Shown here: one piece after another, positions 13,662 through 20,600 of the stretch | Layout of the letters: each line of letters begins with the position of its first letter | How positions within the stretch are numbered: the stretch's first letter is position 1 | DNA from: Candidatus Doudnabacteria bacterium | GTDB lineage: Bacteria > Patescibacteriota > Doudnabacteria > UBA920 > O2-02-FULL-48-8 | Length of the DNA stretch: 64,000 nt | NCBI GenBank assembly: GCA_016186915.1 | Contig: JACPKU010000006.1 | Coordinates: 249,619-313,618 of the forward strand | Direction: 5' to 3' | The notes under the pieces: generated by a model | Told to the model about the DNA's origin: nothing | The model's input: the letters and a program-made list of their open reading frames with translations, nothing else | The model's database searches: none | Translations under genes and position numbers: made by a program

Positions 13662-14228
13662 TCAAAGCTCAAATAACCTAACTAAGTCCTTTTGAATATC
13701 AATCTTTTGCACTGTCAATATTCTAATATAGGATCTCACTTCATAAAGCTCACCGATAAAATCAACTTCATCTTCACAGGAATAGGGATAAATCCAAACA
13801 CTTTTCTGCAATTTATAAAACCCTAGCTCTTTTAGTTTATTACGCAGACACTCCCTCCCCATCTTATATTTTTCGGGAATATCAAAAATTACCACACGCC
13901 ATTTACGATCCCATTTCCAGGGCTTTTTGATTCGCATGTCTTCAAGTTTGTATTTCAATACTTTATTTTGTCCGTTCTTTGTAAGTCCTACCACGGTTGT
14001 GTCACCATTTTGTGATACGCCAATCAATCTTTGCTTCTCTATTCTCCTTAAAGAATCATAGACCTTCCGTCTGCCCACTCTTGGGAGACCAAGTTCGTCG
14101 GCAATCACCATAAATGTCAATGGCCCTGCAACAGGAATTGCCAACACTCCGGCTGCGGCGAGAGTTAGCAAGACGGTTTTAGTGATCTTTAGTCTTCGTT
14201 TTGTTTTTTCAGTGTTCAATTTCTTCAT
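13662..14228 (-). CDS. PaaX-like regulator with Cas2-like domain (paralog 2)
   Basis: WDRKWRVVIFDIPE...LKELGF..LQKSVWIYPY; shares AG.LAIPVAGPL with 5775..6353. Confidence 0.85.
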   Translation of the reverse strand: MKKLNTEKTKRRLKITKTVLLTLAAAGVLAIPVAGPLTFMVIADELGLPRVGRRKVYDSLRRIEKQRLIGVSQNGDTTVVGLTKNGQNKVLKYKLEDMRIKKPWKWDRKWRVVIFDIPEKYKMGRECLRNKLKELGFYKLQKSVWIYPYSCEDEVDFIGELYEVRSYIRILTVQKIDIQKDLVRLFEL

Positions 14229-17129: not shown

Positions 17130-17981
17130 TTAAGTCGCTAATATTAATTCCGACAAAACAAGCTTCGCATTAAGATTCTGTTCAATGAATCTGCGCGCTC
17201 TGCTCACCAGTCTGAGTTTATTGGCCAACTCCGGCTTCCCGGTGAGGTTGAGATCGCGCTCAAGCCGGACCAGCCAAAAATCCAACAACGTTTTGATCTC
17301 GGTCGTTTCCTGTCCCGCAATCTCTTGAGCCAGAAGCAGTCGGTCGATTCTTTCTGCTTGATTAAATGTTTGATAAGACAAGCCCCAGCTTTCAAGTTCT
17401 GTGAAGTTTTCAGGATCCGCCAAAACTTTTTTAACCCAACCAGGACGGCCGGCCGCCACTGACGAAATTAGATCTTTTTGGTCTGCCGAAAGCGTAGCCG
17501 GCACCAAGACCTTGAGCTCATCCTCTCCTACCAGCCCAAAATTAATTTTTTGCGTGCGGCTGATAATTGTTTTAGGCAATCGCTCCACCGAACTAGTAAC
17601 AAGGATGATCACGGTATTGGGTTTTGGCTCTTCCAAAGCTTTGAGCAAAGCATTGCTGGCTTCCAAGGTCATGGTCTCAGCCCGATCTATCAGCGCAACT
17701 TTATATTCAGCCGAATAAGGCTTAAGCGATAATTTGTAAATCAACTCTCGGATCTTTTCTATCTTTATCCCTGCTTCGTCTTCTATCAGTAAAAAGTCTG
17801 GATGAAAATAATTTTCGAATGAAGGAGGATCAATCAGAACTTTCGCCAGCCATATCCCCACCAATTTTTTCCCCACCCCTTCGGGACCTGCAAAAATATA
17901 AGCGTGCGGCACCCTGTCTTTTGCAATAGCACGCGCCAACATATCTATTTGCCTTTTGTGTCCTACAATTCCTTCAAGCAT
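17130..17981 (-). CDS. holB: DNA polymerase III delta' subunit
   Basis: HAYIFAGPEGVGK, HPD, NALLKALEEP, TIISR; probable start MLEGIVGH at 17981. Confidence 0.92.
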   Translation of the reverse strand: MLEGIVGHKRQIDMLARAIAKDRVPHAYIFAGPEGVGKKLVGIWLAKVLIDPPSFENYFHPDFLLIEDEAGIKIEKIRELIYKLSLKPYSAEYKVALIDRAETMTLEASNALLKALEEPKPNTVIILVTSSVERLPKTIISRTQKINFGLVGEDELKVLVPATLSADQKDLISSVAAGRPGWVKKVLADPENFTELESWGLSYQTFNQAERIDRLLLAQEIAGQETTEIKTLLDFWLVRLERDLNLTGKPELANKLRLVSRARRFIEQNLNAKLVLSELILAT

Positions 17982-18084: not shown

Positions 18085-18369
18085 ATGACTATTTGGGACA
18101 ATGCTACACCCGAACAGATTCTCGACCGAGTCAAGGCAATCGTGGCACCACATGGCTTAAACGCCGAATTTCTCGAAGGGATCCTGTCCGTTGGCGTTCA
18201 AGGGGACGATCGTACCTACACTCCCGTCGTGGTCCTGAACGGGCCGCATCCGGGCTGGGAAATCCTGGAGAGGCTTTCATCACAAATCTCCAACGAAACG
18301 CCCGTGAACCGAGTCACGTTCGAGGTTGCCACTCGGCCCACGACGCTCTCAAACCGGCGAGCGCGATAG
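18085..18369 (+). CDS. Small protein resembling the isolated C-terminal domain of GMP synthase
   Basis: SVGVQGD.RTY and LERLSSQI.NE..VNRVT.EV resemble the GuaA C-terminus; SD AAGGAGG; hairpin CCCGTCGA/TCGACGGG plus T-tract downstream. Confidence 0.75.
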   Translation: MTIWDNATPEQILDRVKAIVAPHGLNAEFLEGILSVGVQGDDRTYTPVVVLNGPHPGWEILERLSSQISNETPVNRVTFEVATRPTTLSNRRAR

Positions 18370-18472
18370 AGACTGAGTAATTGCGCAGGCAGAACTGCCC
18401 CGTCGACACTCGCTATCGACGGGATTTTTTATATTAACAAATTACTACAATACAAAATAAATTCACGCAAAC

Positions 18473-18549
18473 AAAAAAACCAGCCCTGACCTAACGTCGG
18501 GGCTGATTTTTTACGCGTTACATTTCTTGTACAAGATTTAGGCTTAACC
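18473..18549 (-). ncRNA. Putative ~78-nt small RNA (unit 3 of the ncRNA island)
   Basis: TTGACG-17-TATGAT promoter (18584-18556); terminator CAGCCCCGAC/GTCAGGGCTG plus U7; no ORF inside the transcript. Confidence 0.5.
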
Positions 18550-18617
18550 TTAACTATCATAAAATTGCTAAATCTTCACGTCAATAAATTTGTATTTCCT
18601 AAGATTTAGAAGGATTG

Positions 18618-18648
18618 TGTGCATATTCTCTGGAAAACTGCTGGATAA
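18618..18648. promoter_or_regulatory. Three degenerate DnaA-box-like 9-mers at 11-bp period
   Basis: TGTGCATAT, TCTGGAAAA, GCTGGATAA compared with consensus TGTGNATAA. Confidence 0.4.
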
Positions 18649-18695
18649 ATTGTACATTACCAAAATTTTAAGATTTGATTTCTAACTTTTGCATT

Positions 18696-18935
18696 AAAAA
18701 AATCACTAAAAAGTGATTTTTTTATAGACCGGTGTGCTGCTGATTTTGTTCTACCACTCTCTTACGAACCTAGCAGAACCCAGGGACCGGGTCCAAGAGG
18801 TTGCCCTTACTTGTTTTACACCTAAGCCGTTTCTTGCTTAAGCGAACCCTTGATCAAAACCTGCATCTCCTGATCCTCCGAACAGCCTTGCAGCTGCCCG
18901 CTCCGCCTAAGTTGCCTCAAACGGAGACCAATGGT
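18696..18935 (-). ncRNA. Putative ~240-nt multi-stem ncRNA (unit 2)
   Basis: TTGACA-17-TAAAAT promoter (18970-18942); GCAA-capped stems with G-U pairs on the minus strand; terminator 18696-18723. Confidence 0.7.
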
Positions 18936-19013
18936 GAATGTATTTTAGAAATTATTAAAATCAGTGTCAATAAATTTTAAAAACCCAGTTTTTATTAAAC
19001 TTTTGATAAATCC

Positions 19014-19045
19014 TGTGCATAACCTGTGCTTAACCTTGGGGATTA
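19014..19045. promoter_or_regulatory. DnaA-box-like array (TGTGCATAA, TGTGCTTAA, TGGGGATTA)
   Basis: One perfect TGTGNATAA match plus two degenerate boxes at 11-12 bp period. Confidence 0.5.
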
Positions 19046-19062: not shown

Positions 19063-19542
19063 AAAAAAGAGGCTCGCAAGCAAGGCTTACAAGCCGAAGA
19101 ACGAGGAGGGGAGCAGATCAACCATCCAACCGGTAGCCCTTGTTAAGGCGGCCAGATGGTCAAATCAGTCCCCTCCACCCCGCAGCGCTGACAGCGCTGT
19201 GTTTGCAGCGTGTCTCGTCCGGGCCTTGGGCCTCGGGCAGAGCCAGCCGCTGGGAACTTGTTGTTTCCTCCGAAAAATTGTAGCGGACAGGGAGTTTGGA
19301 TGGTTGAGGCCGGGCCAGCGGAATCAACCAGCCTCCCTCCCCATCCTGTCGGCGCCGAGCGTGTCAACTGGCGCCGAGCTTGTACCGAGGGGATGCGCGC
19401 GCGTAGGGCCAGTAGCAGCCCTTTAGCGTGGCCTTTGTTGCGCACTCACCCCCTCGGACCGCGCTTGTCCAGAAAGGCCCCAGCCCCTCGGACTTGCGCG
19501 ATCTTGAGAAACCCAAACCAAAAAAACTTACCTGTCTTTGGT
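19063..19542 (-). ncRNA. Putative ~480-nt GC-rich, highly structured ncRNA (unit 1)
   Basis: TTGACA-18-TATAAT promoter (19577-19548); consecutive long hairpins with minus-strand G-U pairs; terminator 19063-19095; overlapping ORFs do not look like proteins. Confidence 0.75.
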
Positions 19543-19583
19543 AAGTTATTATATATTTCAAATTACCAAACTGTCAATAGATT

Positions 19584-20600
19584 TTATTTTGTTGCCAAAA
19601 TACTTTTTTTATAGCTGTCCAAATTGTCCAACGCCACCCCTGTGCCGGCAGCCACGCATAAAATAGCGTTTTCAGCCACGTAAGCTGGAACTCCGGTAGT
19701 TTGGCCAATTAACTTGTCGATATTTCGCAAGAGCGCGGTGCCGCCTGTCAAAACCATGCCCTTATCAATTATATCCGCGGCCAGCTCAGGCGGAGTTTCT
19801 TGCAGGACGGTTCGGACTGCCTGGATGATTTCCCGCAGTTCTTCCTGAATCGCTTCCACGATTTCATTGGTGGAAATTTTAATCGTTTTGGGAAGCCCCT
19901 GTATCAAGTCCCTGCCTCGAATTTCAAGCTTGGTCTCTTTCTCCACTGGTATGGCCGAGCCGATCTTAATTTTAATATCTTCCGCAGTCCGGTCTCCCAC
20001 AGCCAAGCCGTGCTTGCGGCGGATATATTCTGCGATGGCCTGATCAATCTTGTTGCCCGCCACCCTCACAGAAGTCTGGGTCACAATCCCGCCAAGTGAA
20101 AGCACTGCCACGTCCGTGGTGCCGCCGCCAATGTCTATGATCATGTTGCCAGAAGGATTCGCGATGTCTATCCCAGCGCCGATAGCGGCGGCCACGGTTT
20201 CTTTGATTATGTAAGCGGCTTTGGCCCCGGCCGCGTGCGCCGCGTCAATCACCGCTCTTCTTTCAGTGGAAGTGATGCCGCCGGGTACGGAGATCATAAC
20301 TTCAGGGCGAAAAAATCGGACATTGCCCGTGGCCTTGTTAATAAAATACCGAAGCATAGCTTCTGTCACCCGGTAATCTGCAATCACCCCGTCCTTCATA
20401 GGTCTGTGCGCCACGATTGTGTCAGGAGTGCGGCCCAACATATCCTTGGCTTCCTGTCCCACGGCCAAAATCTTATTGTCAACTACAGAAATCGCCACCA
20501 CTGTGGGCTCATTAATAATAATGCCCTGCTTGGGCACGAATACTAAGGTGTTGGCAGTTCCTAAATCTATTCCAATTTGCCGTAAAAACAATCGAGCCAT
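19584..20600 (-). CDS. mreB: Second MreB/Mbl-family actin homolog
   Basis: GIDLGTANT, DIGGGTTD, LTGGTALL. Confidence 0.95.
   Translation of the reverse strand: MARLFLRQIGIDLGTANTLVFVPKQGIIINEPTVVAISVVDNKILAVGQEAKDMLGRTPDTIVAHRPMKDGVIADYRVTEAMLRYFINKATGNVRFFRPEVMISVPGGITSTERRAVIDAAHAAGAKAAYIIKETVAAAIGAGIDIANPSGNMIIDIGGGTTDVAVLSLGGIVTQTSVRVAGNKIDQAIAEYIRRKHGLAVGDRTAEDIKIKIGSAIPVEKETKLEIRGRDLIQGLPKTIKISTNEIVEAIQEELREIIQAVRTVLQETPPELAADIIDKGMVLTGGTALLRNIDKLIGQTTGVPAYVAENAILCVAAGTGVALDNLDSYKKSILATK

Follow-up and report, generated by a model that had tools for sequence, protein, structure and literature searches.

The window analyzed here, a 64,000-nt stretch of a Candidatus Doudnabacteria contig, carries between mreB and holB what sequence comparison identifies as a real, stand-alone, single-copy non-coding RNA gene. 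Comparison with its homologs establishes its transcription-unit signals, its secondary structure, a self-complementary 5' end, and a phased promoter array that is shared with the promoters of replication genes. We tentatively propose that the product is a trans-acting structural RNA, with a promoter likely read by the replication initiator DnaA, that likely forms end-to-end dimers and likely binds protein through a domain of helices P5, P6, and P7. We infer the protein-binding role only by exclusion of pairing, catalytic, and riboswitch roles; DnaA control and dimerization are read from specific sequence signatures.

Gene limits, genomic setting, and distribution

The first-pass annotation had described a ~240-nt element on the minus strand, and its limits are borne out by the fold z-scores and by the promoter and terminator listed here with the neighboring features (window coordinates).

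18942 to 18970, minus strand: sigma-70-type promoter, TTGACA-17-TAAAAT; the promoter pattern occurs in 17/17 homologs
18695 to 18724, minus strand: intrinsic-terminator-like hairpin with A and U tracts; hairpin and U-tract occur in 17/17 homologs
19584 to 20600, minus strand: mreB, the upstream anchor gene (Pfam MreB_Mbl; synteny)
17130 to 17981, minus strand: holB (DNA polymerase III delta'), the downstream anchor gene (Pfam DNA_pol3_delta2; synteny)
18472 to 18549, minus strand: small neighboring unit starting with GGUUAAGCCUA, which has a promoter and a terminator to itself and occurs in relatives without the RNA too
19065 to 19545, minus strand: separate GC-rich structured unit of ~470 nt (z of -6.3) that has its own promoter and terminator and is not part of the RNA

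Transcription very probably begins at the predicted start, 18935, and would run to the terminator at 18724 to 18695 for a predicted transcript of ~238 nt. The minus strand from 18726 to 18935 folds at -78.4 kcal/mol (z of -3.4; 0 of 200 shuffles were as good), while the plus strand of the same place has a z of +0.5, and no ORF of at least 60 aa lies over the element. The terminator hairpin is absent from the terminator-scan listing. Because the promoter and terminator patterns recur in all 17 homologs and the downstream gene differs between genomes, we regard the element as a unit of its own. A riboswitch or other cis-acting leader was rejected: the terminator follows directly on the closing helix in 17/17, a new promoter comes next, and the downstream genes vary.

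Searched against Rfam at gathering scores, the whole window gave no match at this place or elsewhere. The relaxed search suggested at first pass, run with the element and two homologs, returned nothing credible at E values up to 10. A match to a known family and an absence of covariation had been named as the two findings that would speak against the proposal, and neither was made.

BLAST over 60 relatives recovered 12 full-length homologs, all in the window's own Doudnabacteria family. A covariance model detected a single copy in each of 13 genomes out of the 25 of the family; the 121 other genomes in the order had none. An exact core pattern matched 11 times among 185,579 species genomes, nine of them titled Candidatus Doudnabacteria, and 14 times in metagenomes, where 13 matches were true by the model; the L084 metagenome match was a chance match and was dropped. 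The total came to 17 distinct homolog sequences. The RNA was not found in viral contigs or in phage and plasmid collections, and the model detected no diverged copy in 18 mreB-downstream loci of genomes without a match (best E, 0.076).

The mreB-holB slot was readable in 22 of the 25 family genomes (3 had no readable slot). The RNA is missing from nine of these 22, with four slots empty and five holding other genes or non-coding units, and it therefore cannot be essential to replication. On a MreB-MurA-MurB tree (FastTree), whose deep support is weak, the carriers are scattered, which fits an ancestral gene lost several times; exchange is also compatible with the pattern. Signs of a mobile or phage-borne RNA (a nuclease or recombinase next to it, multiple copies, occurrence on phages or plasmids) were not found, and the gene occupies a fixed slot with one copy per genome.

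Other small units share this slot. The GGUUAAGCCUA unit occurs family-wide (L063 to L071, L087, and L091) and begins directly after its own promoter; in most relatives it has an inner hairpin, GAAACUU...GCAGGAUC, that is lost in this genome. The ~470-nt unit at 19065 to 19545 had no real homolog in 150 relatives, and a likeness to RNase P, suggested by eye, was rejected since RF00010 scores only the rnpB gene elsewhere. The slot often holds another ORF-poor unit of 170 to 650 nt with its own promoter and terminator (19065 to 19545, minus strand, in the window; downstream of mreB in L003, L007, L091, L087, L063, L065, and L068). Several of these share the words GGAGGA and CCAGCAG without BLAST homology, and they are possibly a fast-evolving second RNA family. 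In L090 (downstream of the RNA) and L068, a further unit behind a promoter of its own opens with a similar AAAGGGGG-AU stretch. Between the RNA units and holB lies a 94-codon plus-strand gene (18085 to 18369) with a GMP synthase C-terminal-like match.

Each of two sediment metatranscriptomes, taken from separate studies, contained one contig resembling the RNA (151 and 162 nt; 96% and 93% alike), with matches confined to 18730 to 18876. By eye, one of them continues into an apparent variant P3 hairpin with a GCAA loop. Three other pieces gave partial matches of 35 to 38 nt. The contigs show neither strand nor level, DNA can occur in such libraries, no housekeeping control was available, and window stretches without contig cover carry no weight; as contigs from RNA libraries, they hint weakly at expression.

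Conserved fold and the self-complementary 5' end

The structure statistics come from the 17 distinct homolog sequences in an alignment fitted to the covariance model, all of one family and hence related. In this alignment 97% of 1131 cells were paired, and both sides had changed in a compensatory manner in 42 of 67 pairs; 0 of 500 shuffles reached these values, and slid controls were 32 to 51% paired. An unfitted MAFFT alignment of 13 sequences gave compensatory changes in 33 of 64 pairs (RNAalifold) and in 38 of 70 pairs of our own structure. This covariation supports the earlier description of a conserved multistem RNA with GNRA loops and probable tertiary packing.

From the 5' end, the fold consists of a free octamer, P2, P3, and a long arm, P4, that closes on the 3' end. 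Inside P4, a 6x7 internal loop is followed by a three-way junction to P5 and P8, and a second junction inside P5 carries P6 and P7, so that the whole contains two nested three-way junctions.

18927 to 18935, minus strand: 5' self-complementary segment at the predicted start, a predicted site of intermolecular pairing; 67/68 cells paired
18901 to 18926, minus strand: P2, an 11-bp hairpin of invariant length with a GYAA loop (17/17); 10/11 pairs compensatory
18880 to 18899, minus strand: P3, an 8-bp hairpin with an A-rich loop (GCAA in this genome); 5/8 pairs compensatory
18856 to 18876, minus strand: 5' strand of the long arm (P4a, internal loop, P4b), pairing with 18726 to 18747
18785 to 18853, minus strand: P5, closing the three-way junction with P6 and P7; the most conserved domain (homolog alignment)
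18819 to 18844, minus strand: P6, with an AAGAAAC-type loop, inside the P5 domain
18794 to 18813, minus strand: P7, with a YA bulge and a GNAA loop, inside the P5 domain
18748 to 18779, minus strand: P8, a hairpin whose internal loop is 3x3 and purine-rich and whose GUAA tetraloop is invariant; 8/10 pairs compensatory
18726 to 18747, minus strand: 3' strand of the long arm, including an invariant ACACCG (homolog alignment)

The thermodynamic stability of P4 is marginal in this genome (pair probability 0.43), as it is in six other sequences, and the helix therefore rests on covariation; in P4b, 9 of 10 pairs show compensatory change. Two of the stems drawn at first pass need revising in light of the homologs. 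The CUCCGUUUGAG, CAGCU, CUUAAGC, and AGG stems are conserved helices in the 17-sequence alignment. The GAUCAGGA/UUUUGAUC hairpin survives with no more than one broken pair in a single sequence of the 17 and is a single-sequence alternative; its two strands pair long-range with the 3' end instead, as helices P4a and P4b. The proposed AUUGGU/ACCGGU closing helix is compatible with 14 of 17 sequences, and two homologs that alter the 5' segment break it. All three GCAA loops reported earlier are present in this genome (18915 to 18912, 18891 to 18888, and 18804 to 18801), of which two are conserved, as GYAA and GNAA (17/17 each), and the third is GCAA in 1/17; the invariant GUAA loop at 18765 to 18762 (17/17) had been overlooked.

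There are 66 invariant columns, 30 of them unpaired, and most lie in the P5-P6-P7 domain. Together with the compact GNRA-rich fold, they would suit a new ribozyme, self-cleaving or trans-acting, with its active site in the invariant P5-P6-P7 junction. We consider this quite improbable: the RNA has no Rfam ribozyme match, no covarying pseudoknot, and no mobile-element context, and it is a unit with its own start and stop signals, so that cleavage would have no evident use. The known self-cleaving ribozymes were rejected in the same way, with no Rfam match and with the hammerhead-core word CUGANGA in 1 of 17 sequences.

Pseudoknot searches of the homolog alignments returned the 5' palindrome as the only clean extra covarying pair; other covarying column pairs outside it follow the two subtypes. 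The first 8 nt are ACCAUGGU in 12 of 17 homologs, and the other octamers are ACUAUAGU, ACGAUCGU, AUCAUGGU, ACCAUGGA, and ACCAUUGGU. A C-G pair of the palindrome has become U-A in one homolog and G-C in another, and there is one wobble in addition. The two double changes are independent (n = 2), and the covariation rests on these two events. In three genomes, the 107 other promoter-like starts include only four that are self-complementary.

Within one strand, the palindrome would leave a loop of 0 to 2 nt, and single-strand folding gave no hairpin. Cofolding of two molecules gained 7.0 to 11.4 kcal/mol, and 13 of 17 minimum-energy dimer folds contained an end-to-end duplex. In this genome, the palindrome has an extra central U as its ninth base; a tiny hairpin also fits, and the single-sequence and dimer folds pair the 5' segment with the 3' ACCGGU instead. 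Pairing of the two ends within one molecule, 5' UGGU with 3' ACCG, is compatible in 65 of 68 cells and would suit a monomer, but both double-change homologs break this pairing and yet keep their self-complementarity. Kretsch et al. (PMC12286853) take covariation between adjacent bases of a palindrome as evidence of intermolecular pairs in OLE and GOLLD. The signature of the OLE/ROOL/GOLLD multimers, a palindrome covarying across adjacent bases, is found here as well (67/68 cells and the two double changes). The adjacent-position covariation fits pairing between two molecules, a reading toward which we lean slightly. Pairing of the 5' UGGU with tRNA ends was rejected, as two homologs change those bases; a leaderless ORF from the AUG of the palindrome was rejected also, as two homologs and this genome change the bases concerned.

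The promoter array and its possible reading by DnaA

Two arrays of 9-mers lie in the region.

19001 to 19045, minus strand: four DnaA-box-like 9-mers with an ~11-bp period, upstream of the RNA promoter; present in 17/17 homologs
18617 to 18649, minus strand: second DnaA-box-like array, upstream of the next promoter (18584 to 18556); second-best site in the genome

All 17 homologs have three to four same-strand 9-mers resembling TTATNCACA at about -130, -119, -108, -97, and -86 from the start. A 9-mer that differs from TTATNCACA by no more than one mismatch occurs at least once in 17/17 RNA promoters, compared to 15/105 background promoter-like sites. A three-unit score, computed with a matrix trained on the same array sites, is maximal at 11-bp spacing, with a median of 27.5 compared to at most 7.3 at other spacings.

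A matrix trained only on the RNA-promoter arrays was then used to scan genomes (first cut-off, 14), and base-shuffled genomes gave 0.0 matches at a cut-off of 16. The part of this result that is independent of the training sites is the set of other places matched. Apart from the RNA promoters, there were eight matches: two at dnaA, three at the unit before holB, and one each at dnaB, a UvrD helicase, and an unrelated gene. Seven of the eight thus fall at replication or repair genes or at the holB-side unit. In this genome, the next promoter downstream is the only one besides that of the RNA to score at least 14, and the dnaA promoter is third at 13.7. The matrix matches dnaA in G021; dnaA, the UvrD helicase, and the unit before holB in G022; and dnaB, the unit before holB, and one unrelated gene in G003, of which 560 kb of about 900 kb was scanned. 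It found the dnaA promoter in 3/3 genomes scanned in full.

Three-unit 11-bp arrays precede dnaA, dnaB, and the UvrD helicase at L158 (~4270), L207 (~9260), L230 (~17840), L197 (~19570), and G000:C2:28166, and these genes make up a candidate DnaA regulon for Doudnabacteria. In the scanned part of G003, the highest-scoring array (32.9; L241 ~16780, minus strand) is followed by a promoter and by a gene whose product looks secreted and has no relation to replication. In 3/3 genomes (G000:C2 ~28260, L158, and L207), the stretch that separates the array from the dnaA start codon contains a conserved ~30-nt motif.

The high-affinity DnaA box of Escherichia coli is TTATCCACA, and oriC is described as containing arrays of weak sites (PMC4285127); dnaA is reported to be autoregulated (PMC5742627). 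Boxes near TTATCCACA that are common to the dnaA promoter, as sought for a DnaA-regulated promoter, are what we found upstream of the RNA. The ligand of the array is probably DnaA, and the RNA promoter is accordingly likely to be controlled by the replication initiator. On the evidence of skew and of where dnaA lies, the locus itself was rejected as a replication origin; in G021, dnaA and the skew minimum are both near 620 kb and the RNA is at 305 kb.

The main rival to this proposal is that the RNA is a monomeric accessory RNA unrelated to replication. On this account the array would be a copied module, the site of another regulator (e.g., of the OmpR family), or a datA/DARS-like DnaA sink, and the 5' segment would be a protective mini-hairpin or would pair with the 3' ACC. 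Direct repeats with an 11-bp period are typical also of OmpR/PhoB-type regulators, and the sites of oriC arrays are spaced by 2 bp. The mreB-holB slot accepts many unrelated units, the RNA is lost together with unrelated accessory genes, one of the eight outside array matches precedes an unrelated gene, and the dnaA site of this genome falls slightly short of the first cut-off. An array also stands before the neighboring unit, scoring at least 14 in 16 of 22 loci, even in genomes without the RNA; the array of the RNA may therefore be a duplicated promoter that says little about the job of the RNA. Against a free-standing sink, the phase of the array to the start is fixed in 17/17 although the surrounding DNA has diverged, which favors a transcriptional role. 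The same matrix finds the dnaA promoters in all three fully scanned genomes, which speaks against the monomeric account as well. With the two double changes at the 5' end also opposed to 5'-3' pairing, we regard the monomeric account as a serious possibility, though a doubtful one.

Under the reading that we prefer, a trans-acting RNA read by DnaA, the initiator would control the RNA promoter through the phased 9-mer array, and the transcripts would dimerize through the 5' palindrome. Docking of the GNRA loops would produce a compact fold whose invariant P5-P6-P7 junction could serve as a binding surface, and the RNA, acting in trans, would bind protein as a scaffold or decoy linked to the replication cycle. 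A bolder version, which we think unlikely, is a new class of bacterial RNA within the DnaA regulon. Such an RNA would be made in step with replication initiation, form a protein-free dimer via its first eight bases, and present its conserved three-way-junction domain in two copies to a replication or cell-cycle protein, in ultra-small hosts without 6S and SRP RNAs.

Patescibacteria retain very little non-coding DNA, and half of this Doudnabacteria family, a group of ultra-small groundwater bacteria, maintains a ~210-nt fold under strong selection, outside all Rfam families. If the array binds DnaA, a structured RNA is wired to replication initiation, and the lineage, which is uncultured, gains its first readable DnaA motif and a candidate regulon (dnaA, dnaB, uvrD, and the unit before holB). 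If the palindrome joins two molecules, this is a small natural RNA dimer with built-in specificity variants, accessible on synthetic RNA without culture of the host. The narrow range and the dispensability of the RNA limit its general importance.

Candidate partners and comparison with known RNAs

Genes that accompany the RNA were sought among 890 ORFs, 69 of which are shared with the carrier G021 and weak or absent in the non-carrier G022; coverage of G003 was again 560 kb of about 900 kb. Three of ten tested families track the RNA. One is metK, present in 13/13 carriers and 2/9 non-carriers (11/11 and 2/7 without the four candidate-picking genomes; P = 0.0025) and located ~119 kb from the RNA in this genome. 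The others, in tested subsets, are alanine racemase (alr; 7/7 and 1/7) and PaaX-like genes (7/7 and 2/8). Deoxyhypusine synthase (10/13 carriers and 3/9 non-carriers), an HD protein (10/13 and 4/9), H+-PPase (12/13 and 7/9), enolase (7/13 and 3/9), YjbQ, SIMPL, and PIG-L do not track the RNA and were rejected as partners. The co-occurrence with metK is not specific, as none of the three tracking families stands out. That alr and the PaaX-like genes track the RNA as well as metK does points to shared gene loss, most simply read as the joint disappearance of several accessory features from streamlined lineages. The PaaX/Cas2-like genes number nine in this genome (one at 13662 to 14228, minus strand), most of them bracketed by two copies of their own palindrome; G006, G009, and G012 have 7 to 9 copies, and genomes without the RNA have 0 to 2.

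The metK pattern would fit a SAM-sensing or SAM-I-derived RNA acting in trans, as would the words AUCA(A/G)GAG, GGCAACC, and CCAAUUCC, which stand in SAM-I order in some copies. We find this account very improbable, since alr and the PaaX-like genes track the RNA equally and similarity to four SAM-I copies of the family exceeds that of all shuffles in 1 of 17 sequences, with a tmRNA control doing no worse. The SAM-I riboswitch (RF00162) was rejected as an identification: there is no Rfam match, the would-be SAM-pocket positions vary, and no regulated gene lies downstream. The likeness to SAM-I amounts to a few short words in the same order and the metK co-occurrence, and this RNA differs in lacking the kink-turn and the pseudoknot of P2 and in its variable pocket positions. 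Canonical SAM-I riboswitches occur in 5 of 25 family genomes (L256 to L260; L129:8550-8651), four of them close upstream of metK. The MetK of the family is a short form of ~320 aa.

A replacement for a housekeeping RNA, either a 6S-like RNA polymerase decoy or an SRP-like RNA, was considered as well. A 6S RNA (RF00013) search of the genome, the ssrS check suggested at first pass, gave 0 matches, and a search of the genome (97% complete) for Ffh/FtsY (SRP54) gave none above the cut-off. Two 5' hairpins, a long arm, and a branched end recall the outline of large SRP RNA. An identity as 6S RNA was nevertheless rejected, as the internal loop measures only 6x7 nt, has 5 bp on its outer side, and forms no large central bubble. 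SRP RNA was rejected because the helix-8 motif occurs in 0/17 homologs and the two 5' loops are not complementary, as Alu-type loop-loop pairing would require. With the SRP protein partner also absent and with 9 of 22 relatives lacking the RNA, a replacement housekeeping role seems quite improbable. A tmRNA was rejected too, since ARAGORN, which detects one on contig C1, reports none in the window.

The faint echo of RNase P noted at first pass did not hold up. Its 3' AGAACAAAA is not conserved and falls within the P8 and P4b stems, and the P4 motifs, GAGGAAAGUCC and its 3' partner, occur in 0/17 homologs, with no model match at this place; the absence of GAGGAAAGUCC from the element had been correctly observed. 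As that annotation proposed to check, a canonical rnpB lies elsewhere (G000:C4:100789-101232). It contains GAGGAAAGUCC and scores 97.5 bits (E = 4e-31). This true RNase P RNA (L031) falls just below the Rfam cut-off of 100 bits, so that default annotation would miss it. RNase P RNAs of the CPR are described as able to diverge below model cut-offs (PMC8172020).

A literature search, with most subscription papers outside its reach, found no description of this RNA, and the main text of a 2026 preprint on non-coding clusters (bioRxiv 10.64898/2026.10.21.760802) does not mention Doudnabacteria, mreB, or holB. Among known families, type A RNase P RNA (RF00010) is alike in its GNRA-capped hairpins and multiway junctions; this RNA differs in lacking the P4 pseudoknot motifs, in having half the length, and in being dispensable. 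The raiA motif RNA (RF03072) was rejected, with 0 model matches in the genome at E values of 10 or better and no covarying pseudoknot. Both RNAs are ~200 nt, single copy, multistem, and trans-acting (here by proposal), but raiA has two covarying pseudoknots and belongs to Bacillota and Actinomycetota, whereas the present RNA has none and belongs to one family of Patescibacteria (PMC10861870, PMC12968392).

The closest likeness in the 5' end is to OLE, ROOL, and GOLLD, which are several times larger. They too have palindromes that cover adjacent covarying bases, with chain-chain pairing that is observed there and predicted here, and A-minor packing is a likely shared feature; their palindromes, as that source presents them, sit in loops, whereas here the palindrome is the free 5' end of a ~210-nt fold without an Rfam match (PMC12286853). 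The promoter array in turn resembles the E. coli oriC arrays, dnaA promoter, and datA/DARS in its same-orientation 9-mers near TTATCCACA (PMC4285127, PMC5742627). Unlike the E. coli arrays, the predicted array is phased to the promoter of an RNA gene, far from the origin, and the dnaA promoter of this lineage bears the same array as the RNA promoter.
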